From Actinomycetes bacterium (GTDB lineage: Bacteria; Actinomycetota; Actinomycetes; S36-B12; UBA5976): a stretch of 61,360 nucleotides of DNA. Under the pieces are notes generated by a model. The model worked only from the letters and a program-made list of their open reading frames with translations, did not search any database and was not told the origin of the DNA. The stretch spans positions 1 through 61,360 of the forward strand of contig JAKAIC010000001.1 of the NCBI GenBank assembly GCA_021814565.1, given 5' to 3'. The position numbers and the translations under genes were made by a program. This document shows positions 20,729 to 36,958 of the stretch, piece by piece. Each line of letters begins with the position of its first letter. Positions within the stretch are counted from its first letter, which is position 1.

Positions 20729-21225
20729 AATTCCCCAGCGGCGACGCGAGCGGCCAATTTCTCGTGCATCTCGACGAGCAGACTATTGAGGCGATGTGGG
20801 ACGCCCGGGCGGAGGACCGATGCCGCTCGAAGGTGGCAGGCCACCACCTGCCTTTGCGTCGGGGCCTTCGCCAGTCCGTCGTACATGCTTCGGAGGAAAT
20901 CGGCGATCTTCCTTGCCGCCTCAGGTTCGAGCCGCGGGTCTGATGCGAGATGGGCGATTGCCTCGTCGATGGGCGTCACCTCGCGCACAGTGACTGGAGT
21001 GAAGAACTCGCCCGGGGACACCCCAAGCCACGCGCAGAGCAGCGTGAACGACGTGAGGTCTGGTTGAGCGCCGGCTTCAATCCGGGTGAACGTGCTGAAA
21101 CTGACGCCCGCATCTTCGGCCGCCTTACGGAGCGACAACTTCCCTCGACGCTCCCGAAGGAGGGCACCGAGTTGGGCAATATCGAGCCGCTCCACACGGT
21201 CAGGGGCGCTGGAGGCGGAAGTCAC
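20725..21225 (-). CDS. XRE-family helix-turn-helix regulator (CapH-like)
   Basis: LGALLRERRGKLSLRKAAEDAGVSFSTFTRIEAG is a canonical Cro/C1 HTH. Co-operonic with ImmA and divergent from the ubiquitin-like operon. Confidence 0.8.
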   Translation of the reverse strand: MTSASSAPDRVERLDIAQLGALLRERRGKLSLRKAAEDAGVSFSTFTRIEAGAQPDLTSFTLLCAWLGVSPGEFFTPVTVREVTPIDEAIAHLASDPRLEPEAARKIADFLRSMYDGLAKAPTQRQVVACHLRAASVLRPGVPHRLNSLLVEMHEKLAARVAAGEL

Positions 21226-21300
21226 GCTGCCTCCGCACGACTGCTGGACCCGAAATCGACTGGTTCCATGCGCCGGAGTGTAGCGCCGAATTGGCGCTCT

Positions 21301-21324
21301 GGTGACACGACACGACGTGTCACC
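21301..21324. promoter_or_regulatory. Candidate operator: 9-bp inverted repeat GGTGACACG-N6-CGTGTCACC
   Basis: Perfect 9-bp arms in the 175-bp divergent intergenic region between the XRE gene and the Mub gene. Confidence 0.45.
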
Positions 21325-21345
21325 AACTCAGCAATGACGCTTTGC

Positions 21346-21354
21346 TGATACAAT
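21346..21354 (+). promoter_or_regulatory. Candidate extended -10 element TGATACAAT
   Basis: TGn-TACAAT about 47 nt upstream of the Mub ATG. AGGAG lies 6 nt before ATG 21401. Confidence 0.3.
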
Positions 21355-21400
21355 TTCTGTGGTGTCCGAACCGCGGAGCCGAGCCTTTTAGGAGCCACAA

Positions 21401-21643
21401 ATGCATGATGCGAACAATGCTTCACCAATCAACTTCACGATCGACGGTCAGAGTTTCACGACCGACGATGCCACGCAATCACCCGCCTCGCTCTTGGCGT
21501 TCGTGGGGTTCGACACCGCCTCCTACGACCTCATGCAGATGTTGCCCGACGGCAAGCCGCGCAAGTTCCAAGAAGGCCAGACAGTGCACATCGAGAATGG
21601 CGAGGAATTCTTGACGGTGCGCAAGGAAGCGTCGGTGGCCTGA
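21401..21643 (+). CDS. Multiubiquitin (Mub)-type beta-grasp domain protein
   Basis: 80 aa. INFTIDGQSFTTDD...QTVHIENGEEFLTV pattern and its position upstream of Prok-E2 and E1-JAB genes. Stop overlaps the next start. Confidence 0.6.
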   Translation: MHDANNASPINFTIDGQSFTTDDATQSPASLLAFVGFDTASYDLMQMLPDGKPRKFQEGQTVHIENGEEFLTVRKEASVA

Positions 21644-22020
21644 TGAGCGAGCGTCCGCCGCGTGACGGAGTCGATGGCTTCATCGCCGACCTCGCAGACT
21701 TCAACATCGCCGCGTTCATCGATGGACCTGTCGTGCGCTACTCGGTGACACCGATCGATGGGTCTATGAGCGGATCCGCCGTGGAGACCGCCGTGGGAAT
21801 CGTCGAACTCGCTCCGTGGCCCGCTGCACCTCCGCACTGGATCCATCTTCCAGCGCACTTCACGTTTGCGCACACGAACACCCAACCCCAGGGCTCGCTG
21901 CTCGGCTGGCTCTGCCACTCGCGCAACATCACATCGTGGACGCCAAGCGCTCACCCTGGCCGGCAATGGCTTGCGCATGTCCGCACTGTTCTCGGTCAGA
22001 TCACTGGAACGGCGGCCTGA
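21643..22020 (+). CDS. Prokaryotic E2-like protein (Prok-E2_E-like)
   Basis: 125 aa. PPHWIHLP motif and candidate Cys in GWLCHSR. Gene order Mub-E2-JAB/E1. Confidence 0.55.
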   Translation: MSERPPRDGVDGFIADLADFNIAAFIDGPVVRYSVTPIDGSMSGSAVETAVGIVELAPWPAAPPHWIHLPAHFTFAHTNTQPQGSLLGWLCHSRNITSWTPSAHPGRQWLAHVRTVLGQITGTAA

Positions 22021-22021
22021 T

Positions 22022-23494
22022 ATGCGTCACAGCGTTGCCATGTCAGTGCAAGTCGACGCGGCCCTCCGGGAGCACCTTGATCGACCAGATGGTCAAGAGG
22101 ACATCTGTCTTGCGACCTACTCGGTATCCACGGGCCGAACGCGTATTTCCCGCCTCATAACCCAGGTCGAACTCCCCGCGACAGGCGAACGTCGCGTCCA
22201 CGGAAACGCGACGATCACCGGGGACTACGTGCTTCGGGTCGCGGCCGTGGCCGCCGCCCGAGAAGAAGGCCTCGTCATTCTCCATTCACACCCCGGTGGT
22301 CACGGCTGGCAGGAACTCAGCGGCCCCGACCACGACGCCGAGCGTTCCTACTCGCACCTCGTGCAGCGCATCACTGGACTCCCGCTAGTGGGAATGACCT
22401 ACTCGGGTGGCGACCAGGCATGGTCGGCCCGCGAATGGGTCATCGGATCTCCCATCTGGCACGAGAGTGTCCGTGTCGTCGGGAACACACTGCGCATCAC
22501 CTGGAACGACACGCAACGGCGGCCACCGGCAACGACGGTCGAGCAGATCCGCACCGTCTCTGCTTGGGGCGAACAACTGCAGCAGGACATTGCCCGGATG
22601 CGCGTCCTTGTTGTCGGCGTCGGCAGCGTCGGACTCGATGTGGCCATTCGCCTCGCGGCCACCGGCATCCAACACATCGGCGTCATGGACTACGACACTG
22701 TCGAGCCGCTGAACCGTGACCGCATGATCGGAGCAACGCGCAAGGATGCGCGACGCAAGACTCCAAAGGTCGAGGTGGCGGACCGGCTTATGACGACCGC
22801 TGCAACCGCCCGATGCCCTGAGATCGCGCTCCATTACCTCAGCATCTGCTCGCCGGAGGGCTTGGCCACCGCGCTCGACTACGACGTCATCTTCTCCTGC
22901 GTCGACCGTCCGTGGCCTCGGGCAGTCATGAACACCCTTGGCTACTCAGACCTGATCCCTGTCATTGATGGCGGTATCAACATCGACACATTCCCCAACG
23001 GATGCATGCAAGGGGCAAGTTGGCGTGTACAGGCCGTAGCACCCGGTGTCCCTTGTCTGTCGTGCTCCGGGCAGATAAACATGCCGCAGGTTGCCCTAGA
23101 CCGGGCTGGGCTACTCGATGACGCGAACTACATCTCACAAGCCGGCCTCCATTCACCCGCAAGTCAGAATGTCGCGCTGCTCTCCGCAAGTGTGAGCGCT
23201 GCACAGCTCGCGCAATTCGTCACGCTCACTGTCTCGCCAGGCGGTCGCGGTGTGTACTCGCCGCTGCGGTACATCCTTGCGGCGCACCACCAAGAACACC
23301 TCGATGGCATCAGCCAGCCCGGCTGTCGCTTCGAACATCGACCTGGCGAAGGCGACAAGCGGAGCGAATTCGTTAGCAACACCGGTCCTTGGATCGACGC
23401 AATGGCAGCACGCACACGCAAGCGGCGCAACTTCGCGTTGCCGTGCGCACTCGCCCGGTTCGTCGCCAGTGCACGCATCACGGACCGCAAGTAA
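22022..23494 (+). CDS. JAB/JAMM deubiquitinase-like domain fused to ThiF/E1-like adenylation domain
   Basis: EEGLVILHSHPGGHGWQELSGPD (E...HxH...SxxD) followed by Rossmann VLVVGVGSVGLDVA...VMDYDTVEPLNRDR and PCLSCSG. ATG at 22022 lies 2 nt after the E2 stop. Confidence 0.75.
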   Translation: MRHSVAMSVQVDAALREHLDRPDGQEDICLATYSVSTGRTRISRLITQVELPATGERRVHGNATITGDYVLRVAAVAAAREEGLVILHSHPGGHGWQELSGPDHDAERSYSHLVQRITGLPLVGMTYSGGDQAWSAREWVIGSPIWHESVRVVGNTLRITWNDTQRRPPATTVEQIRTVSAWGEQLQQDIARMRVLVVGVGSVGLDVAIRLAATGIQHIGVMDYDTVEPLNRDRMIGATRKDARRKTPKVEVADRLMTTAATARCPEIALHYLSICSPEGLATALDYDVIFSCVDRPWPRAVMNTLGYSDLIPVIDGGINIDTFPNGCMQGASWRVQAVAPGVPCLSCSGQINMPQVALDRAGLLDDANYISQAGLHSPASQNVALLSASVSAAQLAQFVTLTVSPGGRGVYSPLRYILAAHHQEHLDGISQPGCRFEHRPGEGDKRSEFVSNTGPWIDAMAARTRKRRNFALPCALARFVASARITDRK

Positions 23495-23496
23495 TC

Positions 23497-23616
23497 ATGC
23501 GCACGGAAATCGAAGCGAATAATCGAGCTGATCGCAAGTCGCGGGAGCGGCAGCTGAAGTCGATGCAAATGAACAGCTCGACCATTGCACCGCAACCTTC
23601 TGGAGGTCACCCATGA
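23497..23616 (+). CDS. Possible 39-aa mini-ORF wedged between the E1-JAB gene and the next gene
   Basis: ATG lies 2 nt after the E1 stop. Its stop overlaps the next start in ATGA. Peptide MRTEIEANNRADRKSRERQLKSMQMNSSTIAPQPSGGHP. No SD. Confidence 0.25.
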   Translation: MRTEIEANNRADRKSRERQLKSMQMNSSTIAPQPSGGHP

Positions 23617-23855
23617 CGGACGTGTTGGTCGAAATCGGCAACATACTTCTGGAACAATCGAGCAGGCTGCCCCGCGTCATGAAGGACAGCATCGTCGTCG
23701 GGTTTCTACTCCTTGCGGTCATCGCCCCACAGGCGCTACGTCATGTCGTTGACGCCTGGGTGCATCTGGAGACGCAGACGATCATGCATCGCCTGCAACC
23801 GCTGCTTGAGGCGGCCGCCGGCGCGGCCACAACGGCCACTACCACTCACGCTTGA
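23613..23855 (+). CDS. Small single-pass membrane protein
   Basis: 80 aa. GGAGG lies 9 nt upstream of the ATG. Hydrophobic IVVGFLLLAVIAP. Last gene of the same-strand run. Confidence 0.45.
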   Translation: MTDVLVEIGNILLEQSSRLPRVMKDSIVVGFLLLAVIAPQALRHVVDAWVHLETQTIMHRLQPLLEAAAGAATTATTTHA

Positions 23856-24102: not shown

Positions 24103-25338
24103 TCAGTTCTGGCGCAGGACGGTTCCGCTGGGCCCCGCGGTCTCACAGTCGGGACTGGCGCAGTCGACGCCATGGCTGCCGGACAACGCGATCAATATGA
24201 CGCAGACAAGCAGGATGAGACCGCCCACGCTTGCCAAGCTGGCAACTTCGTTGGTGTGCGCAACCATGACCGCGGCGAGCACTGGGCCGACCGGTCCGAT
24301 TGCATACGATCCAAGCGCGTCGATCGCGAAAACGCGGGAAAGCTCTTGCGACGGTATCGATCGTTGAAGCACGGTCACCCACAGGACTCCGAAGACCTCA
24401 ATGCCCGCACCTGTGAGGAGTGCAGCCACTAAGACTTGCGAAATGCTTCCGACCGCGAGCGCAAGTGGCTCGAGGGCGATGAGGCTCGCGTATTGGAGAG
24501 CGCGAAGAAGCGGCTTGGTGGGATCGAGCCTAAGCGCAAGCGCCGCACCGAGCACTGAACCAACCCCGGTTGCAGCCGATACGCTGCCCCACACTTCCGC
24601 CCCGCCAAGGTGCGTCACGGCTTGCATGGGTCCCAGTACGTTGATGCACGCGAGGAATGCAGCGTTGATCAGGGCAAACCCCGCCACCGTTTGCAGCAAC
24701 CATGGTCTAGAGACAACGGCTTTCACGCCTTGCTTTGCTGCTTGTCGCCAAGACTCCTGCGCTTCCGCCACTTGCGGAATCTCGCGCAATCCCATCCGGC
24801 TCACTGCACCAAAAAGGCAACTAACTCCGACAAACGTCAGGATCGCGGAGCCGTAGCGCCCGGCCAACCAAGCTCCCAGGAACGCCCCGCCGATCTGCGC
24901 TACATTGGCGATAATGCGACGGATACTGTTCGCTGACTGAATCTTTGCGGCGTCCACGACTTGCGTGAGAATGCCTTGGCTTGCGGGCAGGTAGAAGCCG
25001 AGCCCAACCCCTCGCAGCGCGGTGAACGCCGCCACCGGAAGTAGCTGCAAAGGTGCCCTCTCGAAAGTGACACTCAAACTGAAGGCTGCCGCTGCCTGCA
25101 TCAAGTCTGCCAGCAGCATCACGTCACGCCTGGACCTACGATCGGCGATCAACCCGCCAAAGACCAGCGCCAGGACCTGCGCCGCCAGGAGCGCTACCGA
25201 CACGACCGCCAGGTCCGCACCGCTGCCACGGGCCGAAAGGATGAGCACCGGCGTTGCTGTCGTCGCGGCGGCGCCAGCCAGCAACGTCGCAGCGTCACTC
25301 GCGCAGAGCCATACGAAGCGTCGACCCAACCGGTTCAT
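24103..25338 (-). CDS. MFS transporter
   Basis: 411 aa with ~12 hydrophobic segments. GGLIADRRSRRD loop motif typical of MFS. Confidence 0.8.
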   Translation of the reverse strand: MNRLGRRFVWLCASDAATLLAGAAATTATPVLILSARGSGADLAVVSVALLAAQVLALVFGGLIADRRSRRDVMLLADLMQAAAAFSLSVTFERAPLQLLPVAAFTALRGVGLGFYLPASQGILTQVVDAAKIQSANSIRRIIANVAQIGGAFLGAWLAGRYGSAILTFVGVSCLFGAVSRMGLREIPQVAEAQESWRQAAKQGVKAVVSRPWLLQTVAGFALINAAFLACINVLGPMQAVTHLGGAEVWGSVSAATGVGSVLGAALALRLDPTKPLLRALQYASLIALEPLALAVGSISQVLVAALLTGAGIEVFGVLWVTVLQRSIPSQELSRVFAIDALGSYAIGPVGPVLAAVMVAHTNEVASLASVGGLILLVCVILIALSGSHGVDCASPDCETAGPSGTVLRQN

Positions 25339-25937
25339 GAAGGTCGGTTGGATGCTCGTTTGCCGCTGCTTGCGGCACTCTTCGCTGCGGACGGTGTCTT
25401 CGAGCTACCGGGATCTGGAGAAGTTTGTACCTCGGCGCTGCTGAACATCATAACCGTCGAACTCACGTGAACAACTCCCGAGGCAGACTTGTCGGTGGCG
25501 GCCTTGTGCAAGCGCTCCAACGCCTTGGCTACCGCTCGAGCGCATTGAATCCATGCGTCCTCGCTCACCCATAGCTCCGCATCGCTGAAGAGGTCCCAAG
25601 AGTCTGGCTTTGCCGCCAACAGGCGGCGACGGACCTCGGCGGAAGCTGCTGCTGCGCTCGAAGGCAGATCGACGGCAGCACCATCAGCGAAGTCGCCCGC
25701 GGTTCGATACAGCCGCTCCTGGCCACCGCGCACGCTGCGCACGTCCACCAACTCGATCAAACCAGCCGCAGCCAATTGACGAACGTGGAAACTGACCGCG
25801 GCCTGAGACTTTCCGAGTTCGCGTCCCAGTTCAGTTGCCGATCTCGGGGCGCCCGTGAGCATGGAAAGGATCCGCAAGCGCACGGGATGCGAGAGCGCAC
25901 GGAGGTGCTGGCGTTCAGCATCATCCACCAAAGACAT
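25335..25937 (-). CDS. ArsR-family winged-helix regulator with C-terminal extension
   Basis: LRALSHPVRLRILSML...ATELGRELGKSQAAVSFHVRQLAAAGLI. 4-nt overlap with the MFS gene. Confidence 0.8.
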   Translation of the reverse strand: MSLVDDAERQHLRALSHPVRLRILSMLTGAPRSATELGRELGKSQAAVSFHVRQLAAAGLIELVDVRSVRGGQERLYRTAGDFADGAAVDLPSSAAAASAEVRRRLLAAKPDSWDLFSDAELWVSEDAWIQCARAVAKALERLHKAATDKSASGVVHVSSTVMMFSSAEVQTSPDPGSSKTPSAAKSAASSGKRASNRPS

Positions 25938-26216
25938 GTTTTGGAGCCTCCCACTGGAGACGCGGACACGTCAAGGAATGCATGTTGCACGCTCTTCGCG
26001 CTGAATCTCTGCGGAGCACCAATCGGTGCACCAGAAGTCTGCACGGCGGGCCCGAGCCCGCCCTACCGAGTGCGTCGCTGCAGCCGCTAGAAGTGCGTGC
26101 GACAGACCCGGGCGAGGCGACCACAAAAGGAGTGCTTGACGGTAGCGTCGGCATGATGCAGCATCCGCACAAGAGTTGCTTTGCAGTTGAGTGCTTGGCG
26201 CAACGGGGGGATTGCA

Positions 26217-27389
26217 GTGGTATCGCTGACTGGCGTTCGAGTACTTCCTGGTCGCTATGGCACCTGGTACACGCGGAACGGCCGTTCGATCTTGATCTCA
26301 GAAGAGGCCGATCCATTCGCTCCCAGCGGCGAAGTGCTCCAGGTGATTTCGGACGCTGGGCTTCTTGACAAGCGCGACAAGCTCTATGGGGCGACGGTCA
26401 TGCTGACATCGCGCTGCAACCTTGCCTGCGCCTACTGCTTTCAAAACGAATCTGGCGGCGAGTCAGGCATCACGAGAATCGATCGGCATGACTTGACGGC
26501 ACGCAACGTAGAGCGTGTCCGAGATTTCGTCGCAGAACAGATGCTGCGGCACGGAAAGTCGGAACTTCACTTGCTGCTGACGGGCGGAGAGCCGCTCATG
26601 AACTATGCAAACTGCCTCGAACTGCTGGACGCGATGGCGCCTCTTGGAGCCGTCCAAGCCGAAATGTTTACAAATGGAGTCTTGCTCAGCAAGGATCGTG
26701 CCGTCGCGCTTTCGCAAGCTGGGCTCACACGCATCCAGGTGTCGTTTGACGGTGCAGGCGACGAACACGATCGGTACCGCAAGACGCCGGCCGGCGTCGG
26801 CTCCTACGCGCGCATCATGCAGAACCTGGTGAACACGCTTGACGCCGCACCGAATCTCAAGGTGACCATGCGCCTAAACATCACCGCTCGCAACGTTCCG
26901 ACGCTTGATCAACTTCTCCTTGCGCTGAGCGAAGTTGCTGCCGGACGGAAGTTGGCCATTCGATTCGGCCTCGTTGATGACATTGGGCTCAACTTCGTCG
27001 ACGCGCCTGATCGAAGCGCAACGACAGCAGAACAAATTCGAGACCTCGCACTAATCGCAATGGAACTTGGCCTGGACGTGGAGCCGATGGCTGCCCCCGG
27101 AGACTGCCTGTTCTGTGGCGTCATCGGAGGCGGTTCCGGGTCTGTCATCAACGCCGACGGAACGCTGTACAGCTGTTGGGAGAGTGTCGGTCGGACCGAA
27201 CTCGCCGTTGGCGATGTGACACGGGGCTATCTAGCCGGCAATGACTTGACCGAACGATGGGTGGACTGCTCATACAACATCGTTGACAGGAACGCGGCTA
27301 CCAAGTCTGCCAGGCAGATCAGTGACGTTGTGGACACGGCGGTTCTTGATCGTTCGTTTGAGCTGCTCAACGTAGGGAGTGCAAGTTGA
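26217..27389 (+). CDS. Radical SAM enzyme with C-terminal auxiliary Cys cluster (SPASM/twitch-like)
   Basis: CNLACAYC (Cx3Cx2C), GGEPL, and C-terminal DCLFCG...GTLYSCWE...VDCS. GTG 26217 is preceded by GGGGGG. The tracked ORF starts at TTG 26181. Confidence 0.8.
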   Translation: MVSLTGVRVLPGRYGTWYTRNGRSILISEEADPFAPSGEVLQVISDAGLLDKRDKLYGATVMLTSRCNLACAYCFQNESGGESGITRIDRHDLTARNVERVRDFVAEQMLRHGKSELHLLLTGGEPLMNYANCLELLDAMAPLGAVQAEMFTNGVLLSKDRAVALSQAGLTRIQVSFDGAGDEHDRYRKTPAGVGSYARIMQNLVNTLDAAPNLKVTMRLNITARNVPTLDQLLLALSEVAAGRKLAIRFGLVDDIGLNFVDAPDRSATTAEQIRDLALIAMELGLDVEPMAAPGDCLFCGVIGGGSGSVINADGTLYSCWESVGRTELAVGDVTRGYLAGNDLTERWVDCSYNIVDRNAATKSARQISDVVDTAVLDRSFELLNVGSAS

Positions 27390-28165
27390 GCGTCACCGAC
27401 TATGGCGTATGGGGGACGCTCAACGACGCGCTCGCTGGGCCTGCAGAACCGGAATTCGTTGAATACTTCAACTCACTTCTGCAGCCGAATGCCCGTGTAT
27501 TCGAGGTGGGCATTGGATCCGGTCGACTGGCATTGCCGCTGGCCAAGTCGGGCTTCAGAGTGTCGGGCATCGACACCAGTCAGCGCATGCTGCAACTCCT
27601 CGCCGAAAACGACCCCGATCAACTCATTAGTTATTCCACGGGAGACATCACAGAAGACCGGAACTTCGGCCGCTTCGATGCCGTATTGCTTGCCTACAAC
27701 GTCCTCTCGATGCTACCAAACAGAGAAGCGCAAGAGCGCGGCCTGCGCAACGCCTGCAGGCACTTGGCATCCAACGGCTTCCTCATCATCGAGAACGTGA
27801 CTCCGCACGCCATCACCTCCCAGTTGAATGAACGACGCCAAGCGATTGGCGTTCAATTTCACGACGATGAACTCTGGCTGAACCTGAGCCGCTATTACCC
27901 GGAAGAGCAGCGCTACAAAGCGCGATTCCTCGCCCTCGAGACCGGCGGCTTCGTCGAGCGTTCTGGCGATCTCACCCTCATCGAAGCAACGACAGTTTGC
28001 GACCTTGTCACGAGTCAAGGCCTGGACCTCATTCGCCAAGCGGACAGTTGGGCGGGGCATCAATTCTCCAACGACAGCGCCAGTTACATCCTGACCTTCC
28101 AGCGATGCGCCGATGCCACAGGCGGCAGTAAGAAGCCGGCTCCTACTTCGCGACAGGGGAGGTGA
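27386..28165 (+). CDS. Class I SAM-dependent methyltransferase
   Basis: VFEVGIGSGRLALPLA (motif I), GIDTS, AVLLAYNV. Start overlaps the rSAM stop. Confidence 0.8.
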   Translation: MSVTDYGVWGTLNDALAGPAEPEFVEYFNSLLQPNARVFEVGIGSGRLALPLAKSGFRVSGIDTSQRMLQLLAENDPDQLISYSTGDITEDRNFGRFDAVLLAYNVLSMLPNREAQERGLRNACRHLASNGFLIIENVTPHAITSQLNERRQAIGVQFHDDELWLNLSRYYPEEQRYKARFLALETGGFVERSGDLTLIEATTVCDLVTSQGLDLIRQADSWAGHQFSNDSASYILTFQRCADATGGSKKPAPTSRQGR

Positions 28166-28170
28166 ATCAA

Positions 28171-28227
28171 ATGGTGAAGGCAATTCTCATTCAGTCAGAG
28201 CCCATCATCGTGTGCGTCGTGCACTAG
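28171..28227 (+). CDS. Unannotated 18-aa ORF MVKAILIQSEPIIVCVVH (candidate RiPP precursor)
   Basis: GGGGAGG lies 7 nt upstream of the ATG and 5 nt after the methyltransferase stop. Followed 12 nt later by an 11-bp perfect GC hairpin. Too short for the ORF track. Confidence 0.4.
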   Translation: MVKAILIQSEPIIVCVVH

Positions 28228-28239
28228 GGATCTCGCACG

Positions 28240-28269
28240 GGTGGGGGCGCGATCTCAAGCGCCCCCACC
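28240..28269 (+). terminator. Strong GC hairpin GGTGGGGGCGC-N8-GCGCCCCCACC
   Basis: 11-bp perfect stem and 8-nt loop immediately after the 18-aa ORF. Confidence 0.6.
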
Positions 28270-28455
28270 GCGCGCTCGAATTCCTGGGACGCCCTTGAGA
28301 TGTGTAGACCCACCGTTCGACGAGATTCCTCTCCGCGACGAGCCGACCCGGATCGGCCCGGCAGGGCAACTCGTGCGGACGTTGTTGGACGGAACCGAAC
28401 TCCACCCAGACGTGCCTGATCAAGTCGACCAAGCACATGAGACAGACGGAGACTT

Positions 28456-29133
28456 ATGAAGACATCAAGACCTGCGTTACTGAGCGCGCTCGCCCTCACC
28501 GCACTAGTGATTGCCACCGGCGGATTCACGAGTGGCGCCACCGCAACTGAGCGATTGGCCACTTCGGCAGGGGGATCCACGGCAGCCAGCGGTTCGAGGC
28601 CTGTGTACGTTGTAGCCATTCATGGGCCGGGCGTTGTGCACCAGGCCGACGGCACCGCCTTCTACCCGACAGGCAAGTTAGCGGCGGGGACGATCATGGT
28701 TATCCCAAATGAGGACGGCACGCTTCCCGGCGGGATGTCAATCTCAGAAATTGCGCGTCGAGCCAACAGTTCTACAACAATGGCGGCTGCGTCATCATGC
28801 CTCGGCGGAACGTATCTGACCACACTGAACACATGGACGAGTGTCCAAACGGCAACGAATTGTGTCGTCATCGGATCGTCCACGGGCACAGTGAGCTACT
28901 GGTTCGGGATTGCCCCCGGAACCAACGGGTCAGCTTTAGGCCAAGGTCTTGGGTACTACCAGGGCTACAACGGATCGACATTCGGCATTTGGGCGAAGTG
29001 GTACGGACTTGGCATGGCTTCCGATGGTTTGCCGGGAGGCGCAACATTGCCATGGGTGAACGTTGCGGCGAACCCAAAGTTCATGGCAATGGGTATGTCA
29101 ATCGTCCCGGCAATGGGCAACTGGGGCGTGTAG
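28456..29133 (+). CDS. Secreted protein of unknown function
   Basis: 225 aa. Signal peptide MKTSRPALLSALALTALVIATGGFTSGATA. Gly/Thr/Ser-rich mature part. Confidence 0.6.
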   Translation: MKTSRPALLSALALTALVIATGGFTSGATATERLATSAGGSTAASGSRPVYVVAIHGPGVVHQADGTAFYPTGKLAAGTIMVIPNEDGTLPGGMSISEIARRANSSTTMAAASSCLGGTYLTTLNTWTSVQTATNCVVIGSSTGTVSYWFGIAPGTNGSALGQGLGYYQGYNGSTFGIWAKWYGLGMASDGLPGGATLPWVNVAANPKFMAMGMSIVPAMGNWGV

Positions 29134-30761: not shown

Positions 30762-31079
30762 GTGGGGCTGCGGCCCTGCTGGAAGGAGCCCAAGATGCCG
30801 AGGGCGTATCCGCAAGAGTTCAAGGACGATGTCGTTCGGATCGTGCTTTCCGGCGAGGTAACGATGGCGCAGGCGGCACGCGATTTCGGAGTGTCCGAGA
30901 CGTGCGTGTCGAACTGGGTTCGCAAGGCCCAGGTCGAAGCCGGGCAGCGGCCTGGCGTGACGGCCAAGGAGTCGACGGAGCTGAAGGAGGCGCGCAAGCG
31001 GATCCGGATCCTGGAGCAGGAAAACGAGATCCTGCGGAGGGCGGCGATCTATCTGGGTCGGGGAACGCTCCCAAAATGA
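30762..31079 (+). CDS. IS3-family OrfA (HTH plus leucine zipper)
   Basis: MPRAYPQEFKDDVVRIV...AARDFGVSETCVSNWVRK...ELKEARKRIRILEQENEILRRA. Confidence 0.85.
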   Translation: MGLRPCWKEPKMPRAYPQEFKDDVVRIVLSGEVTMAQAARDFGVSETCVSNWVRKAQVEAGQRPGVTAKESTELKEARKRIRILEQENEILRRAAIYLGRGTLPK

Positions 31080-31942
31080 TCTACCCCTTGGTGACGGAGC
31101 TGGCTGCCAAGGGGATCCCGATCGCCCGGTCGTGCAAGGTGTTGGGCTTCTCCAAGCAGGCGTTCTATGCGTGGAAGGCGGCGCCGGTGAGTCAGCGCGA
31201 TTGGGATGACGCGCACCTCATCAACGCCGCCCGCGATGTCCATGCCGACGATCCGACGTTCGGTTACCGGTTCATCCATGACGAACTCGAACTCACCCAC
31301 GGGCACTCGGTGGGACGTAACCGCATCCACCGGTTGTGTCGGCAGGAAGGTCTCGGCTCGGTCATCGTCAAGGGCCGCGGCAAGGGCAAGCGTCCAGGCC
31401 CTGCCGTGCATGACGATCTCGTGCAACGCCAGTTCGGTGCCGAACGCATCGACCGGCTTTGGTACGTCGACATCAGCGAGCACCCGACCTTCGAGGGCAA
31501 GCTGTATCTGTGCGCCATCAAGGACGCAGCATCCGCGCGGATCGTGGGCTATTCCATGGATTCCCGTATGACTGCCGATCTCGCCTGCAATGCGCTGCGT
31601 CACGCGATCCTGCGACGGCGACCCATCGGCACCATCGTCCACTCGGACCGTGGCAGCCAGTTCGGTGCCAAGAAGTTCCGCACCATCCTCACCGAACACG
31701 GGCTTCGCGGCTCCATGGGACGTGTCGGTGCGGCAGGCGACAACGCGGCCATGGAATCGTTCTTCGCGCTGCTGCAAAAGAACGTCCTCAACCGCCGCCA
31801 ATGGCAGACCCGAGACCAATTGCGGATGGCGATCTGCACCTGGATCGAACGCGACTACCACCGTCGCCGCCGGCAGGCTGGCCTGGGACGACTCACCCCC
31901 GTCGAATACGAGACAATCACCACCGCAGCATTAGCTGCCTAG
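31076..31942 (+). CDS. IS3-family OrfB (DDE integrase core), probably made as an OrfAB fusion
   Basis: WYVDISEH (D), HSDRGSQF (D), DNAAMESFF (E). The frame is open from 30902. Slippery C CCA AAA at 31070..31076. Confidence 0.85.
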   Translation: MIYPLVTELAAKGIPIARSCKVLGFSKQAFYAWKAAPVSQRDWDDAHLINAARDVHADDPTFGYRFIHDELELTHGHSVGRNRIHRLCRQEGLGSVIVKGRGKGKRPGPAVHDDLVQRQFGAERIDRLWYVDISEHPTFEGKLYLCAIKDAASARIVGYSMDSRMTADLACNALRHAILRRRPIGTIVHSDRGSQFGAKKFRTILTEHGLRGSMGRVGAAGDNAAMESFFALLQKNVLNRRQWQTRDQLRMAICTWIERDYHRRRRQAGLGRLTPVEYETITTAALAA

Positions 31943-32412: not shown

Positions 32413-34194
32413 TTGCGCTATCGCCGTTATGCCGGACCAGTCCCCGGCATGGTGACACCCACACACACAGAGATCACGGTCCGTGTACGCCGCTTCACGC
32501 CCAGCCGCCTGGATGCTCCCGCGTGGGCTGCTGCCCGCGATGCGGCGGTTGAGGCGGTGCTCGCTGCGAACCCGCCGACGCTGCTGGAAGCCGACTACTA
32601 CTGCACGCACTTGACGTTGTTTCTGGCGAGTCTCTCGACTGGGGTATGGGACCGGGTCAGTGAACCTGACATAGCGCAGCTGCTGACTTCGACGGCAATC
32701 GACGTGTTCACCTCCGAGACAGGCATGCCTGGCAAGTCCAAGTACACGCGGAAGACGGCGCGCACGAGGCTTCGCCAGTTGCAGCGGGCCGCGCTCGATC
32801 GAACGAAGGCACCGAGCCGCCCGCGGGCGACGTCGAGGAAGGCTTCCCGGTTCTGGATGCGGGTGACGGGTCTGGCGCCATTCACGGCACTGGCGGAGGC
32901 ATACCGCACGGCCGGTGGCTCTCTGCACATCACTTCGTGGATGGAGATTGCCGAATCGTTGACCACGGATTTGCGCACGATGTCCCCTGCGGCGAATGCG
33001 ACGACGCCCCCGGTGGGCACGCTCCGCGGTGTCCAAATGGGTGCCGAGGCGCTTCGTGAGGTCAAGGCCCCGCAGGGGGTGAGGCTGATGGCAACGCAAC
33101 CGACATCATCGACAACTGTAGCCAAGCCAATGTCGCGAGCCGCGGCACTCCGAATGGCTCGGGCAGCGCAAACGGCCGTGGCTGCACCACTGATCACACC
33201 CGTGCCGGCACTGGCTACCGAGCTGCAAACCATGGTGGATGGCTGGCGCCCGCAAGGCGTGTCCGAGCAGGTGTGGGCGCCGGTGGAGGCAGCCGCAGCG
33301 ACCGCGATGGCGGCGTATGCGCCGACATCGCAGTCCTCGCTCATGAACATCCGTTCCGTGATCGCGGACTATTGCCTATGGGTGCACGACCACCAGACAC
33401 ACGCTGCGGGAGCAGACCTGACGCTCGAGGCGCTGGTCGCGGCAGGTGTCCTCGAGGCGTACTTCGCCGGACCACTCACCGTGCGTCCGGATGCGACGCA
33501 GGCCACGGCACGCAGTGTGCTGCGCCGAGTAGTGCGGAAACTCGCCCCGCAGACCGCGCCGACACCGATCAGCTATCAGCCGGTGCAACCCCCATACAGT
33601 GACGCTGAATGCGCATCGTTCGTGCTCCTGGCACGCAATCAGCCGACTGCACACATGCGCCGCGAACTGTCCGCCATGATCGCGCTCGGCCTAGGTGCCG
33701 GGTTGGCGGCGGAGGACTCGCGGCTGATTGCACCGTGGCATGTGCGGGAACTCGACCTCGGTGACAGCGCGCCCGCGCTGGCGGTGCTGGTGCCTGGTGA
33801 GGCACCGCGTGGCCGCCTCGTGGTGGTGCGCCGTGAGTATGAGCCGCTGCTGCGGGAAGTACTCGCCCTACACAAGCAGGCACGCCGCAGCTCCAGCACC
33901 CCGCTGTATGGGGTGAACCCGAAGCGTCGTAACGGTGCGAACCGGGTCACGGAGAAGGCGGTCACCGCCACCGGTCAAGGCGTCGACGTGAGTGCCGCAC
34001 GTTTGCGCACCACGTGGCTGGTGGCGTGCATGTCGTCACCGGTGCCGTTCGGTGCCCTGCTCCACGCCTCCGGCCTGCGGACTCCGCGTACCTTGACCGA
34101 TCTGCTGCCGTTCTGTCCCGCACCCGATCCGCTGGCGGTTGCGTTGGCGCTGCAGGTCGCGGGCGGAGCCTCGAATGCGCAGGTTGCATCATGA
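32413..34194 (+). CDS. Module copy 3, gene A: integrase-fold protein that appears catalytically degenerate
   Basis: 593-aa ORF. Likely start is the Met at 32449 (MVTPTHTEI). C-terminal half nearly collinear with copy 1. Confidence 0.7.
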   Translation: MRYRRYAGPVPGMVTPTHTEITVRVRRFTPSRLDAPAWAAARDAAVEAVLAANPPTLLEADYYCTHLTLFLASLSTGVWDRVSEPDIAQLLTSTAIDVFTSETGMPGKSKYTRKTARTRLRQLQRAALDRTKAPSRPRATSRKASRFWMRVTGLAPFTALAEAYRTAGGSLHITSWMEIAESLTTDLRTMSPAANATTPPVGTLRGVQMGAEALREVKAPQGVRLMATQPTSSTTVAKPMSRAAALRMARAAQTAVAAPLITPVPALATELQTMVDGWRPQGVSEQVWAPVEAAAATAMAAYAPTSQSSLMNIRSVIADYCLWVHDHQTHAAGADLTLEALVAAGVLEAYFAGPLTVRPDATQATARSVLRRVVRKLAPQTAPTPISYQPVQPPYSDAECASFVLLARNQPTAHMRRELSAMIALGLGAGLAAEDSRLIAPWHVRELDLGDSAPALAVLVPGEAPRGRLVVVRREYEPLLREVLALHKQARRSSSTPLYGVNPKRRNGANRVTEKAVTATGQGVDVSAARLRTTWLVACMSSPVPFGALLHASGLRTPRTLTDLLPFCPAPDPLAVALALQVAGGASNAQVAS

Positions 34195-35972
34195 GGCGCA
34201 GCGAGTTCGGCCGCATCCTCGATCGCGTCCAAGCCGGTGGCGTCACGACGTATGTGGAAGGACTACTGCGTCCCGAGGGCAAGGGTGGGCGTCCGCGCCA
34301 GTTGACCGTTGCCGTGTTCTTGACGGCCGTCATTTGCGCGGTCGATGAGAAGGAAGGCAAGTTGTCGCTGACGAACGTGCACGACTTGCTCATCAACGGT
34401 CTTGCACGCTCATACCGCATCGTGCTGGGCATCACCTGGACGGATGATGCCGGCAATGATTGCTCAGTCACACAACGGCAGGTCCGCTACTTGCTGGAGG
34501 CGATCGAGCTCAAGCTCGCGCACACGCAGGGTCGTGCAGCGGACCTGACCGACGAAGACCGAGTCACCCGTGCCGCCGCCCTGCAGAACGTGCTGGACCT
34601 GCTCGTGCAGTCGAGCTTGCCCTCGCACCTTGCCGCTCCCGGCATCTACGCCTTGGATGGAACGGGTCTGGCGTCTTGGGGTAAGGGCCGCAAGCGCACC
34701 CCTGTCGACCCGAATGCGGACCACGCTGAAGACGATGACTTGACCATCAACGATGACAATGCCGAAACCGCACTGCACAAGCGGCTTGATCCGGACGCGC
34801 AGTGGGGTTATCAGACGAAGACGTATGACAACAAGACGAACTACTGCTTCGGCTACCACGCGTTCGCCATGGTCGGTCTAGACCCGGTCGGAGTTGACCC
34901 GGATATTCGACCCAAGCTCATTGAAGGCATCGCGTTGCGGCCGGCCAACGCCAACGCCATCGACCCGGCACTCACGCTCATCGACTCACTGATCGCTGCG
35001 GGACGTCCCGTCAACGAGTTGCTGTCGGACCGTGAGTTCTCCTACAAGTCTGAAGAATCGTGGGCCGGTCCGCTGCTCGATCGCAAGGTCGCACAGGTCA
35101 TGGACATCCACAGCAAAGGCCGTGGCGTCCGTGACTTCAACGGTGTCGCGATGATCGATGGCACCCCGCACTGCCGCGCCGTACTCGGTGACCGCGACGA
35201 CCTCATCATCATTGCGCGACCAGCGAACCTGTCGGCCGGCACGTTGAAGGCCAACGCCACCGATGAGGAACGCGAGGAGCACGCCACACGTGTGCGGGAA
35301 CTGGCCGAGTTCCGTGCCAAGATCGCGCAGCGGGAAGTCGCTGCGTTCCGACGTGTCTCCAGCGCGGACGAGAATGGCGACGAGCGTTGGGAATGCCCCG
35401 CCCAGGCCGGCAAAGTGATCTGCGCCAACTGCCCACTGTCCTTGGGCTACCCCAAGGACCGCCCCGTCGTTGCCGAACCGCACCAAGTGCCCGCGCTGCC
35501 ACCGCGCCCCACGCCGCCGGCAAAGCGCACCAAGCATGCCGTCGAGCAGCACCGGCAGGCACTCAAGGCGTACGAGAAGCAGGCTGATGTCTTGCGCTGC
35601 TGCCGTCAACGCACCATCACGATTCCCGGCAATGTCACACCCAAGCAGCGGCAACGCCTGTACTGGGGTTCGGATGCCTGGATCGAATCCTTCGCGCGCC
35701 GCACCCATGTCGAAGGCGTCTTCGGCAACATGAAGAGCACGAAGGGCGCGAACCTCAAGCGCGGCTGGATCTACGTCGTCGGCATCGTCAAGACGAGCAT
35801 CATGCTCGCCTGCGTCGCCTTCGCCACGAACTTGCGCCTGCTGCGCTCTTGGTCCGAACGCACCGGCGATGTGACCGACCCACTGTGCCAACCGCTACCA
35901 CCGTCGTTGGGCTTCGAAGAACTCGACGCCGACGGCAACCCCGACCTGGCCGTCGCGCCACCAGAGCAGTAA
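34191..35972 (+). CDS. Module copy 3, gene B: IS4-like DDE transposase
   Basis: Start placed at the ATGA overlap (MRRSEFGRILDRVQAGG), by analogy with copies 1 and 2. YALDGTGLASWGK, LLSDREFSYKSE, FARRTHVEGVFGNMK, RWECPAQAGKVICANCP. Confidence 0.75.
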   Translation: MRRSEFGRILDRVQAGGVTTYVEGLLRPEGKGGRPRQLTVAVFLTAVICAVDEKEGKLSLTNVHDLLINGLARSYRIVLGITWTDDAGNDCSVTQRQVRYLLEAIELKLAHTQGRAADLTDEDRVTRAAALQNVLDLLVQSSLPSHLAAPGIYALDGTGLASWGKGRKRTPVDPNADHAEDDDLTINDDNAETALHKRLDPDAQWGYQTKTYDNKTNYCFGYHAFAMVGLDPVGVDPDIRPKLIEGIALRPANANAIDPALTLIDSLIAAGRPVNELLSDREFSYKSEESWAGPLLDRKVAQVMDIHSKGRGVRDFNGVAMIDGTPHCRAVLGDRDDLIIIARPANLSAGTLKANATDEEREEHATRVRELAEFRAKIAQREVAAFRRVSSADENGDERWECPAQAGKVICANCPLSLGYPKDRPVVAEPHQVPALPPRPTPPAKRTKHAVEQHRQALKAYEKQADVLRCCRQRTITIPGNVTPKQRQRLYWGSDAWIESFARRTHVEGVFGNMKSTKGANLKRGWIYVVGIVKTSIMLACVAFATNLRLLRSWSERTGDVTDPLCQPLPPSLGFEELDADGNPDLAVAPPEQ

Positions 35973-36306: not shown

Positions 36307-36352
36307 GCGGCGAACAATAGCGGAGGAGGCTGCAGCCGAAGAATCCGCTGCC

Positions 36353-36907: not shown

Positions 36908-36958
36908 GTAAGACACGGCGACCTCCACTGGCTCCAACACGGTCCCGGCGGACCGCAG

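Follow-up and report, generated by a model that had tools for sequence, protein, structure and literature searches.

An 18-codon gene conserved behind a radical SAM enzyme and a methyltransferase as the probable precursor of a minimal modified-peptide system in actinobacteria

We suggest that a short open reading frame (ORF) of 18 codons, at positions 28171-28227 of the 61,360-nucleotide stretch of DNA analysed here (the window), is a translated gene that encodes a ribosomal precursor peptide, and that this peptide is modified by the radical SAM (rSAM) enzyme and the methyltransferase encoded directly upstream. The ORF would then be the third cistron of an operon with the order rSAM, methyltransferase, peptide, and the three genes would make up a minimal RiPP system. 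Taken as a whole, we consider this explanation probable. Comparison of related loci indicates that the ORF is a real gene, conserved as protein-coding sequence, and the gene is strictly linked to this rSAM-methyltransferase pair. For the chemistry, we propose by analogy with known systems a cross-link through Cys15 within the C-terminal tetrapeptide, followed by N-methylation. Most likely, the window system forms a minor branch, so far uncharacterised, within a large family of modified peptides in actinobacteria. The features are collected in Table 1.

Table 1. Features of the rSAM-methyltransferase-peptide locus and its neighbours in the window
Feature	Positions	Strand	Basis
MFS transporter, 411 aa, candidate exporter	24103..25338	-	Pfam MFS_1 3e-22
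ArsR/HTH_20-type regulator, 200 aa, divergent from the rSAM operon	25335..25937	-	Pfam HTH_20 6e-16, HTH_5 3e-11
Putative conserved promoter/operator	26120..26186	+	CCACAAA half-site, -35 TTGACG (26136-26141), 17-nt spacer, CAGCAT (26159-26164), CACAA-N7-TTTG
Radical SAM peptide maturase (predicted), 390 aa, GTG start	26217..27389	+	Pfam Radical_SAM 2e-14
Class I SAM methyltransferase, 259 aa, TTG start	27386..28165	+	Pfam Methyltransf_25/11/12/23
Shine-Dalgarno sequence GGGGAGG, inside GGAGGTGA	28156..28162	+	Read directly; GGAGGTGA also holds the methyltransferase stop
18-codon ORF MVKAILIQSEPIIVCVVH*, proposed precursor peptide	28171..28227	+	Kept in 10 distinct loci, coding-type substitutions
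GC-rich hairpin, probable U-tract-less terminator or mRNA-stabilising stem	28238..28272	+	Folding energy

Direct reading of the window gives an ATG at 28171-28173, the translation MVKAILIQSEPIIVCVVH and a TAG stop ending at 28227. The initial annotation had placed a strong Shine-Dalgarno sequence ahead of this frame; GGGGAGG is indeed present, at 28156-28162 and thus one base off the 28157-28163 given at the time, and the methyltransferase TGA (28163-28165) abuts it within GGAGGTGA. Between the last G of GGAGG and the ATG lie eight bases, and the ribosome-binding site is the strongest in the operon. An alternative in-frame GTG at 28162 would give a 21-aa version, but because this GTG falls within the Shine-Dalgarno sequence and is out of frame at other loci (L081), we take the ATG at 28171 as the start. 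The earlier description of the peptide holds for the window copy: it is hydrophobic, it has a lone Cys near the C-terminus (position 15 of 18), and four of its 18 codons end in A or T (GCA, ATT, ATT and TCA). Residues 1-11 would form the recognition or leader part and residues 12-18 (IIVCVVH) the core. By the window alone, the ORF is weak evidence and does not rise beyond chance; GGAGG followed after 4-9 nucleotides by ATG or GTG occurs 37 times on its two strands, mostly within genes. No gene is called at this position in any public record examined, and NCBIfam and Pfam scans of the peptide, in extended forms of 21-22 aa, returned no family.

The comparison between loci carries the argument. 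An ORF follows the rSAM-methyltransferase pair directly in 10 of the 10 distinct loci with sequence available at that place (rSAM identity 66-44%), and it is 18 codons long in every one of them, so the loss of the ORF behind orthologous clusters, which the initial annotation had named as grounds for giving up the idea, is not what we find. The peptides share the motif M-[VI]-[KI]-[AT]-[IV]-[ILV]-x3-[EK]-P-[ILV]3-C-[GV]-[VT]-[HR], in which Pro11 and Cys15 never change. Residue 17 is beta-branched throughout, and the peptide always stops exactly three residues past the Cys; the ends are CVVH, CGVH, CGVR or CGTR, with His18 replaced by Arg in three loci and Tyr found nowhere in the peptides. Divergence at codon positions 1, 2 and 3 is 0.33, 0.17 and 0.46 (order 3 > 1 > 2), the amino-acid substitutions are conservative, and the codons of the invariant Pro11 (CCC/CCA/CCG) and of the conserved Gly16 and Val17 vary synonymously. 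The DNA 3' of the stop is unalignable, with an ungapped identity of about 17-41% that is near random. A GGAGG(T/G)GA-type (GGAGGTGA-type) site lies 3-7 nucleotides ahead of the start codon in all ten loci, also in those where the methyltransferase stop is elsewhere. Thus the ORF is, as is generic for RiPP precursors, short, conserved and genetically linked to maturase genes.

Within the peptide, the invariant Pro11 stands between an N-terminal half that is beta-strand-like and variable in charge and a C-terminal half that is almost fixed. In half of the orthologues the sequence is strongly basic (RRKK). Across the ten loci, the charge of residues 7-10 is opposite to that of the N-terminal hairpin of the rSAM enzyme, acidic peptides going with TRNGR and RRKK peptides with DDGxQ, a pairing that is confounded by phylogeny.

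The initial annotation had also described a terminator after the ORF. There is a GC-rich stem-loop of 11-13 bp: positions 28240-28250 pair perfectly with 28259-28269 (11 bp, 8-nt loop), two further pairs lie past a bulge, and the free energy is -38.7 kcal/mol (z = -5.6), with none of 200 shuffled sequences folding as well. The stem is followed by GCGCGCTCGAATTCC, in which there is no T-run, and a consensus terminator scan does not call it. Because of these two points, the label of terminator is partly supported: the stem-loop stands and the U-tract is missing. The seven loci that were folded have a comparable hairpin of 8-14 bp, GC-rich and 3' of the stop, in sequence that cannot be aligned. 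At L166 and L167, tRNA genes are suspected right behind the hairpin; the contigs end there, and ARAGORN gave no confirmation.

The rSAM enzyme belongs to the radical SAM superfamily (PF04055 54.6 bits against a cut-off of 29.5, with the CxxxCxxC motif), and its CNLxCxYC is invariant in 21 homologues. It is laid out as a small N-terminal beta-sheet domain plus a twitch-like auxiliary Cys set. In the same 21 homologues, C297, C300 and C351 of the C-terminal part are invariant and C320 nearly so; CX14GX4C is present, the CX2CX5CX3C block is missing, and neither a PF13186 (SPASM) match nor the seven Cys of a SPASM domain are found. Such a set fits one auxiliary cluster of the twitch-like kind. The earlier label of a radical SAM/SPASM enzyme therefore survives for the peptide-maturase type of rSAM and not for a full SPASM domain, given four conserved C-terminal Cys and no PF13186 match. 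The top NCBIfam matches are all RiPP maturases (CefB, geopeptide and PapB at 91-104 bits, and TIGR04463), the SCIFF maturase model is also among them, and none reaches its curated cut-off: the best, CefB, scores 104.2 against 600, PapB 91 against 340 and MftC 47.9 against 265. Distant rSAM relatives likewise stay under the cut-offs of all named maturase families in NCBIfam. The best PDB sequence match is CteB (E 2.4e-20), and PqqE is a distant one (E 1.8e-4). In the AF2 model (pLDDT 89), residues 8-46 form three strands and a helix, and the top fold matches are CteB, anSME (second, TM 0.6), ChlB and SkfB, with EpeE far lower (TM about 0.45). By sequence and predicted fold, the enzyme is thus of the peptide-maturase type and most like the thioether-forming CteB.

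The TTG start of the methyltransferase overlaps the rSAM stop as TTGA, by 4 nucleotides. The profile of its family matches characterised enzymes over the full length (CcbJ 6e-44 at positions 10-240, YunM 2e-28, CypM 1e-21), and the best Foldseek matches are CcbJ, CypM and YunM (TM 0.76-0.86). Its identity to the CypM, CcbJ, CgnL and daptide enzymes is just 18-26%, and some of its structural neighbours in Foldseek are C-methyltransferases (SeMT, PsmD and SgMT). The best NCBIfam match is the daptide methyltransferase NF041820, at 65.9 bits against a cut-off of 175, and the oxidoreductase and aminotransferase partners of a daptide system are missing from the loci. On full-length sequence and fold similarity, the enzyme is assigned to the CcbJ/CypM lineage of amine N-methyltransferases. 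For this reason, we consider N-methylation more probable than the transfer to carbon or sulfur that had been put forward before. Close relatives number about ten, after which identity falls to 30%, which argues that the methyltransferase is a dedicated partner of this rSAM clade. In this group, the enzymes methylate a free amine late in maturation, and CypM dimethylates free peptide N-termini, those of Met and Ile included, once the leader has been removed (PMC11285071).

The same arrangement of promoter and operator elements is found 5' of the rSAM gene in 11 of 11 loci examined. A sigma-70 consensus scan does not call it, and we infer its function from the sequence. In the methyltransferase clade, the DNA from the regulator to the rSAM gene was also examined for a second precursor; none is conserved, and the promoter and operator elements are all that is kept there. 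The HTH_20/HTH_5 regulator adjoins the rSAM gene in every related locus. The MFS gene is syntenic in the window, L081, L082, L085, L166 and L167 and absent from L168, L169, L174, L176 and L258. The genes 3' of the ORF vary by locus (a secreted 225-aa protein, TetR, HTH/nucleotidyltransferase, OMP decarboxylase). We rejected the secreted 225-aa protein as a member of the cluster, since it recurs in L082-L084 only. None of the rSAM-methyltransferase-peptide loci encodes a protease.

How could such a system work? We propose that the beta-strand-prone N-terminal half of the peptide (M-V-K-A-I-L-I-x-x-E) docks on the three-stranded N-terminal domain of the rSAM enzyme, much as leaders dock on RRE domains. 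On this model, peptide residues 2-8 would pair as a strand with the sheet at residues 8-27 of the enzyme, and the CxxH end would be placed between its two clusters. The 5'-deoxyadenosyl radical would then take a hydrogen within the C-terminal C-[GV]-[VT]-[HR] tetrapeptide, and the thiol of Cys15, possibly bound to the single auxiliary cluster, would capture the carbon radical. The outcome would be an intramolecular thioether (-2 Da), for which the unbranched beta-carbon of residue 18 (i+3) is the most likely acceptor. The methyltransferase, being of the CcbJ/CypM type, may place one or two methyls (+14 or +28 Da) on a free amine, either the Met1 N-terminus or a new N-terminus arising from a peptidase cut past Pro11. 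A peptidase encoded elsewhere could cut after Pro11 and leave a 7-residue core, which is speculative because the loci encode no protease. Where the MFS pump is present it could export the product, and the divergent ArsR-type regulator could control the conserved promoter. Since the Cys is invariant, the reading we favor is that radical SAM chemistry centred on the Cys modifies a very short precursor. Counting against the proposed model are that no curated rSAM threshold is reached, that the enzyme has one auxiliary Cys set where well-studied ranthi-synthases such as CteB and PapB carry a complete SPASM domain, and that the single-Cys substrate is without the acidic or Asn acceptor of known ranthipeptides.

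The C-terminal ends raise another chemistry, that of mycofactocin. The C-G-V-H, C-V-V-H, C-G-V-R and C-G-T-R ends resemble the end of MftA, IDGMCGVY (PMC11162802), where the Val-Tyr core is preceded by Gly (PMC7491314). By a reaction comparable to that of MftC at this Val-Tyr, the C-terminal His or Arg would undergo oxidative decarboxylation by the rSAM enzyme, and its carbon skeleton would be bonded to the beta-carbon of the Val or Thr ahead of it. The resulting small lactam could leave as a small molecule or cofactor or stay peptide-bound, and the methyltransferase would then decorate it. The fixed distance of three residues between Cys and stop and the beta-branched position 17 fit this, as does the presence of MftC among the weaker NCBIfam matches. 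However, the MftC score is well under those of CefB, geopeptide and PapB, His or Arg stands where MftA has its terminal Tyr, and no MftB, MftD, MftE or MftF-type gene flanks the cluster at any locus. Moreover, in the wider family described below the C-G-V-[H/Y] motif is internal and repeated (e.g., WCGVHQE), where C-terminal decarboxylation is impossible, so a chemistry shared by both is unlikely to need a free C-terminus. We regard the mycofactocin-like route as unlikely. Quite unlikely in our view is a modification with no cross-link at all, namely L-to-D epimerisation of Ile or Val as by EpeE/YydG, or oxidation of the Cys to formylglycine as by anSME. It would agree with the structural rank of anSME, with the presence of EpeE much further down among the fold matches, with the single auxiliary Cys set and with an aliphatic putative core like the sites in epipeptides, whose aliphatic residues undergo epimerisation. 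But the anSME target motif C-x-P-x-R is missing from the peptide, CteB and the RiPP maturase models outscore these enzymes, and the sole invariant residue of the core is a Cys, in a family motif centred on Cys-Gly that epimerisation of Ile or Val does not need.

The ORF could also be real and yet not be a substrate, as a free-standing membrane peptide or toxin or as a translated leader with control over read-through into the genes that follow. Other bacteria have tiny hydrophobic toxins of like size, the window peptide is itself hydrophobic, and a hairpin lies directly 3' of the ORF. The RRKK-type orthologues are not membrane-like, though. As for a leader, the downstream genes differ between loci, so there is no common gene to regulate, and the downstream DNA is unalignable, so no alternative antiterminator pairing is conserved. 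In addition, the ORF is seen exclusively behind the rSAM-methyltransferase pair, and no C-x-x-H-stop ORF was found in 80 loci of the wider family (L001-L080), which are without this methyltransferase. A role apart from the two enzymes is therefore very improbable. That the frame is open by accident, in GC-rich sequence next to a purine-rich gene end, has the smallest probability, close to negligible. The number of Shine-Dalgarno-like sites with a start codon in the window would allow for it, and other frames of the same 57 nucleotides are often open too; against this, length, start and stop register, motif and codon-position pattern are the same in 10 loci despite flanking non-coding DNA that is unalignable, and on these comparative data we consider the chance reading effectively refuted.

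To return to the proposed substrate modified at Cys15, the window clade appears to be part of something larger. We confirmed 521 rSAM relatives by tblastn in GTDB species genomes. Relatives with 31-39% identity over the full length, present in several hundred actinobacterial species genomes, keep the same four C-terminal Cys. The loci L001-L080 belong to this wider family (Streptomyces, Kitasatospora, Catellatospora and others), which is also seen in Micromonospora. Their precursors are short ORFs preceded by a Shine-Dalgarno sequence, acidic or beta-strand-like, with a C-G-[VI]-[Y/N/H/F] core that recalls the CGVY end of MftA. In 42 of the fetched loci there is also an S9 prolyl oligopeptidase, and the precursors there mostly place a Pro 0-3 residues ahead of the Cys. 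Further loci bring in a B12-rSAM or DUF6895, and frequently an MFS transporter is a neighbour. The precursor gene of the wider family is found upstream of the rSAM gene, often encodes a multi-core peptide and continues past the motif, whereas in the window clade it comes after the enzymes; the CcbJ-like methyltransferase is found in the window clade and not in the wider-family clusters. That no C-x-x-H-stop ORF turned up in the 80 loci agrees with precursors that differ and lie upstream. An HMM of the ten 18-mers, run against 15,988 stop-to-stop segments of the wider family, gave a best E-value of 1.7, which is not significant, with about 11 of the top 45 segments being precursors. Homology between the 18-mers and the upstream precursors is thus suggested. 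NCBIfam and Pfam scans of nine or ten wider-family precursors returned no family. In the searchable full-text literature, whose coverage ends short of subscription journals, we found no description of the wider family and nothing relevant for the peptide motifs or for rSAM together with oligopeptidase in actinobacteria.

A tentative proposal, and one that we would sooner expect to fail than to hold, is that the 18-mer and its relatives form an undescribed class of rSAM-modified peptides, with a four-residue ring or a rearrangement on C-x-[V/I/T]-Z. The hallmark of such a class would be a Cys at i paired with a residue at i+3 that is polar or aromatic and unbranched, and the window clade could be its minimal form: an 18-residue precursor, a recognition domain of about 50 residues, one auxiliary cluster and an added alpha-N-methylation. 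If the CGVY match is meaningful, the mycofactocin precursors and the family of several hundred species could share an ancestral type of substrate.

Among known systems, the SCIFF, ranthipeptide and sactipeptide maturases (CteB, PapB, SkfB and the NxxcB type) come close, with a short Cys-donor peptide beside an rSAM enzyme in which a peptide-binding domain at the N-terminus is combined with an auxiliary Fe-S cluster. However, CteB and PapB have full SPASM domains and the window enzyme a single twitch-like Cys set; its substrate has 18 residues, one Cys and no Asp, Glu or Asn acceptor; and the precursor gene comes after the enzymes, with an N-methyltransferase as partner. MftA and MftC are similar in a very short actinobacterial precursor on which the rSAM enzyme acts at the extreme C-terminus, and in the C-G-V-[aromatic or basic] end. 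The differences from mycofactocin are that the window peptide ends in His or Arg rather than in Val-Tyr, that the rSAM enzyme is not an MftC orthologue, and that a separate MftB chaperone, MftD, MftE and MftF are missing; the flanking genes are limited to those for an ArsR-type regulator, an MFS transporter and a class I methyltransferase, the last of the CcbJ/CypM type in place of the sugar methyltransferase MftM. With CypM (cypemycin, linaridins), CcbJ, CgnL and the daptide methyltransferase there is likeness in fold and full-length profile, yet none of the other enzymes of linaridins or daptides is found in the window loci. PqqA and PqqE offer a precursor far under the usual gene-calling length and an rSAM enzyme acting on a few residues near its C-terminus. 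PqqE joins a Glu and a Tyr of PqqA, whereas the window peptide family has no Tyr and has Glu or Lys at position 10, and PqqD, PqqB and PqqC partners are missing. The aromatic-X-X motif of triceptides is likewise not found, since the only aromatic-type residue, His18, is the last one and is Arg in three loci.

An 18-residue precursor would rank among the shortest known for rSAM-dependent peptides. The SPECO workflow for co-occurring short ORFs has a floor of 20 residues (PMC11002830), and as no gene caller annotates the ORF in the records examined, genome-mining pipelines would score the enzyme pair as lacking a substrate. With the substrate known, the system is directly testable with two enzymes and one peptide of synthetic size, and it could show what a twitch-type rSAM enzyme does with a lone Cys. 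The C-G-[VI]-[H/Y/N] core gives an entry to homologous clusters in several hundred actinobacterial species, and the resemblance to the end of the mycofactocin precursor raises an evolutionary and mechanistic link that can be tested.

As for distribution, a scan of JGI metagenome contigs with the rSAM alignment gave no close relative (best 40% identity), and viral contigs held generic rSAM proteins alone (at most 32% identity), with no sign of phage carriage. PADLOC made no defence-system assignment and returned generic similarities: a viperin-like rSAM core, a mad2 methyltransferase domain and a Csa3 HTH. The clusters occupy variable islands that adjoin ubiquitin-like/E1-JAB, SMODS, SIR2 and HEPN/MNT genes. 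With such islands around them and a dedicated ArsR-type repressor in control, the clusters may make a molecule for conflict or signalling and not a classical antibiotic.

We assign the 18-mer system, as a probable member, to the radical SAM (rSAM)-dependent RiPPs, outside every named class tested, because each of those classes fails in at least one defining feature. Direct reading of positions 27900-28500 confirms the 18-codon frame of the initial annotation, ATG(28171) GTG AAG GCA ATT CTC ATT CAG TCA GAG CCC ATC ATC GTG TGC GTC GTG CAC TAG(28227), which encodes MVKAILIQSEPIIVCVVH. Its strong ribosome-binding site, GGGGAGG, is present as described, though at 28156-28162, one base to the left of the 28157-28163 originally given, and is followed immediately by the methyltransferase stop TGA (28163-28165), within GGAGGTGA. 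Downstream is a hairpin with a perfect 11-bp stem (28240-28250/28259-28269), a loop of 8 nt and a folding energy of -38.7 kcal/mol (z = -5.6; RNAfold, against 200 shuffles). The stem of the proposed terminator stands, but no T-run lies 3' of it and a consensus terminator scan makes no call there. An Rfam search at the small ORF gives no match. Taken alone, such a frame is weak evidence, since GGAGG with an ATG or GTG 4-9 nt further on occurs 37 times in 61 kb, mostly within genes. The rSAM stop and the methyltransferase start overlap as TTGA, with the small ORF next and the hairpin after it. From this order, the three genes appear to form a single operon with translational coupling, closed by the hairpin.

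Features of the rSAM operon and its surroundings in the window
Feature	Position	Strand	Remark
463-aa protein	16688-18079	-	upstream of island; no Pfam match
Ser/Thr protein kinase	18060-19022	-	upstream of island
NT5C-family deoxynucleotidase	19050-19865	-	upstream of island
ImmA/IrrE-type M78 peptidase	20174-20728	-	adjoins plus-strand E1/JAB-like operon
HTH partner of M78 peptidase	20725-21225	-	
80-aa protein	21401-21643	+	weak Multi_ubiq match
125-aa protein	21643-22020	+	
ThiF/E1 protein	22022-23494	+	N-terminal JAB-like HSHPxxxxxxxSxxD motif
Another 80-aa protein	23613-23855	+	
MFS transporter	24103-25338	-	
ArsR/HTH_20 regulator	25335-25937	-	
Promoter/operator	26120-26186		CCACAAA - TTGACGGT - N15 - CAGCAT - CACAA-N7-TTTG; upstream of rSAM gene; kept in 11/11 loci
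Radical SAM protein	26217-27389	+	390 aa; GTG start
Class I methyltransferase	27386-28165	+	TTG start
Small ORF	28171-28227	+	after methyltransferase, then hairpin
225-aa protein	28456-29133		after hairpin; N-terminal signal-like hydrophobic segment; no Pfam/NCBIfam match
IS3-type transposase	30795-31942		HTH_Tnp_1 frame (94 aa) overlapped by a second frame with rve integrase core
ORF	34014-35972		weak DDE_Tnp_1_6 match
tRNA genes	36220-36306, 36962-37046	-	both on this strand
Small SRP RNA	37127-37221	+	then dnaX

Close relatives of the rSAM are few, only about 20 (34-66% identity) among 5.8 billion proteins searched. The comparison covered the contigs of nine of these proteins, plus a contig that carries a relative of the methyltransferase. 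The initial annotation had named retention of the ORF downstream of orthologous clusters as the decisive test, and an 18-codon ORF strictly accompanies the enzyme pair in 10/10 distinct loci that reach past the methyltransferase. Besides the window peptide, these are MIKTILIESEPIIVCVVH (L081), MVKAIVITEEPVIVCVVH (L082), MVIAVLRRSEPIIVCGVH (L166), MIKAIIRRNKPLIICGVH (L167), MVKAVIQRKKPVLVCGVH (L168), MIKAIVVRRKPVIVCGVH (L176), MIKAVIRRKKPVILCGVR (L169) and, with GTG starts, (M)VKAVIRRKKPVILCGVR (L174) and (M)IKAVIRRKKPVILCGTR (L258); the sequence of an eleventh locus, L085, ends after ATGGTCAA. All ten share the same length, start register and stop. They keep Pro11 and Cys15 without exception, with Val or Thr at position 17 and His or Arg at position 18. 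Codon choice varies synonymously (CCC, CCA or CCG for the invariant Pro; GGA, GGC or GGG for Gly16), and the pairwise divergence averages 0.33/0.17/0.46 over codon positions 1/2/3. Every start is preceded by a GGAGG(T/G)GA-type site, also in loci whose methyltransferase stop lies 40-60 nt further 5'. The 54 nt 3' of the stop are 17-41% identical without gaps, which is near random, and despite this a GC-rich hairpin follows in 7/7 loci folded. From the codon-position pattern, the synonymous changes, the constant length and register and the diverged flank, we infer that the small ORF is a protein-coding gene under purifying selection and not an RNA element; a chance frame is excluded. It is missing from every public gene call examined, and is genuinely hidden from annotation. 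Three MAGs (GCA_027393445.1, GCA_027393395.1 and GCA_027393355.1) represent this uncultured bacterium, which probably belongs to the Actinomycetota, judging by its GC content and by the taxa of the homologues.

An ArsR-type regulator is divergent from the enzyme pair in every locus fetched, and an MFS pump is found in six (window, L081, L082, L085, L166 and L167). In L174, a second copy of the promoter/operator (~6430-6510) precedes a trio of genes for small proteins (172, 115 and 100 aa) that lie downstream of the peptide. Thus, the regulator may control more than the peptide operon.

The description of the enzyme as radical SAM/SPASM holds in part. The motif CNLxCxYC is invariant, and peptide maturases make up all of the top NCBIfam matches (CefB, 104 bits; geopeptide, 92; PapB, 91; TIGR04463, 91). 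The alignment lacks the CX2CX5CX3C block that marks a full SPASM domain, and Pfam SPASM does not match. SCIFF maturase (64 bits) and MftC (48) score lower, and the protein is far under the cut-offs of all these models. Only four Cys are conserved in the C-terminal part (C297, C300 and C351 invariant, C320 in at least 90% of sequences), and C300-X14-G-X4-C320 fits a twitch/SPASM beta-hairpin. The thioether-forming CteB is the best solved structure by sequence (E 2.4e-20) and also the best fold match to the AF2 model (pLDDT 89); anSME, the cyclophane synthase ChlB, SkfB and TigE come next. In this model, residues 8-46 form three beta-strands and a helix, which may be a miniature leader-binding (RRE-type) domain, as in such enzymes. 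In L176/L177 the rSAM gene (2896-4578) is called as 560 aa with a 170-residue N-terminal extension; since this aligns with no other member, it probably reflects a start called too far upstream and not a gene fusion.

The methyltransferase has only about ten close relatives before identity falls to 30%. Its profile matches the celesticetin N-methyltransferase CcbJ over the whole length (E 6e-44), YunM (E 2e-28) and CypM, which methylates the N-terminus of cypemycin (E 1e-21), and its AF2 model (pLDDT 88) superposes on all three with TM 0.76-0.86. Further fold neighbors are mostly amine N-methyltransferases (CgnL, TylM1, CalS10, KedS8, NmbA, GNMT), with a few C-methyltransferases. [quoted passage not shown] Thus, putative amine N-methylation is the best-supported role, in place of the C- or S-methylation suggested initially.

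We propose that recognition of the 18-mer would involve pairing of its beta-strand-prone residues 2-8 with the sheet at the rSAM N-terminus. Charge lends this weak support: residues 7-10 are opposite in net charge to the rSAM hairpin that follows the conserved Trp (-1, -2, -2 to +2, +1, +2, and +4, +4, +4, +3 to -2, -2, -2, -1), a comparison confounded by the shared ancestry of the loci. The radical reaction would take place in the C-terminal tetrapeptide, and Cys15 would be its constant partner. By analogy to the chemistry of CteB, PapB and NxxcB, we favor a thioether linking Cys15 with residue 18. The residue at +3 after Cys nearly always has an unbranched beta-methylene, so a link to the beta-carbon would suit. 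One or two methyl groups would then come from the CypM/CcbJ-like enzyme and sit on a free amine, that of Met1 or, if the peptide is cleaved behind Pro11, that of residue 12. Where present, the MFS pump would export the product, and the ArsR-type protein would regulate the operon via the conserved promoter/operator.

Other readings of the peptide fit less well. MftA ends in IDGMCGVY (PMC11162802), and MftC decarboxylates its terminal Tyr and joins Tyr to Val (PMC7491314). The 18-mers end in CGVH, CVVH, CGVR or CGTR, always exactly three residues after Cys and with a beta-branched penultimate residue. However, the rSAM scores weakly against the MftC model, the MftB/D/E/F genes are absent and the same motif is internal and repeated in precursors of the wider family, so that mycofactocin-like processing seems quite unlikely. 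We consider epimerization or Cys oxidation by the rSAM very unlikely. It is extremely improbable that the ORF encodes a stand-alone small protein or a regulatory leader, since the basic 18-mer variants do not fit this and downstream genes are not conserved.

In a wider family, tblastn confirmed 521 rSAM relatives in one-per-species genomes. We kept the best 80 of the 521 (L001-L080, 31-39% identity), almost all from actinobacteria (Streptomyces, Kitasatospora, Catellatospora, Micromonospora, Nonomuraea and others). Save for two weak domain matches (L001 and L014, 25-26% identity), the methyltransferase is missing from these loci, and none contains a C-x-x-H-stop ORF. In many of them a short ORF, preceded by an SD site, lies 50-250 nt 5' of the rSAM, for example MKIEIFETTERVVCGINL (also 18 aa), MEIDVYEMEDEARDVCGVKG and MQIEVFERASEAGAVVCGAYGGR. 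Others encode multi-core precursors such as ...EVVAHSEEGEDTPWCGVHQEQNA, including repeats of EVVAHSEEGEDTP-WCGVHQE. Among 55 Cys in 38 hand-collected candidate precursors, +1 is Gly in 29/55, +2 is Val or Ile in 29/55 and +3 is Tyr, Asn, Phe, His, Lys, Gln, Arg, Trp or Met in 41/55; the consensus, C-G-[VI]-[Y/N/H/F], agrees with the terminus of the window-clade peptides, C-[GV]-[VT]-[HR]. Searched with an HMM built from the ten 18-mers, 15,988 wider-family segments give a best E of 1.7, which is not significant, although about 11 of the top 45 segments are wider-family precursors. Homology is thus suggested, not proven. An S9 prolyl oligopeptidase is added in 42 fetched loci, whose precursors usually have Pro 0-3 residues before Cys; by analogy, Pro11 is a possible leader/core junction. 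Loci of the methyltransferase clade encode no peptidase genes. Other additions are a B12-rSAM (L013), DUF6895 with MFS (L077) and a 486-aa methyltransferase-domain protein (L014); L044 (~4700-4865) and L026 (6161-8257) are example sites of these clusters.

As far as the searchable literature shows, this wider family appears uncharacterized. Pfam and NCBIfam have no models for the 18-mer, the wider-family precursors or, at family level, the rSAM. No description of the peptide motifs or of the gene combination was found in the open full-text literature, and an earlier description in subscription journals, outside this scope, is possible. The SPECO short-ORF co-occurrence workflow takes ORFs of 20-100 residues (PMC11002830), so an 18-residue gene would be missed.

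The genes at 20174-23855 look like a bacterial ubiquitination-like (E1/JAB) conflict system. SMODS, ThiF and JAB adjoin the same rSAM cluster in L085, and SIR2_2 (L082) and an MNT/HEPN pair (L168) lie nearby. Thus, the cluster tends to sit in variable, defense-island-like regions. The 225-aa protein recurs only in L082-L084 (64% identity) and is therefore probably outside the conserved module. The variable island may plausibly give way to the core chromosome at the tRNA genes and SRP RNA (36220-37221), after which dnaX follows. The transposase stretch of a sister MAG (L171) contains an additional insertion, a Mu-type transposase/IstB pair, which indicates a region in flux.
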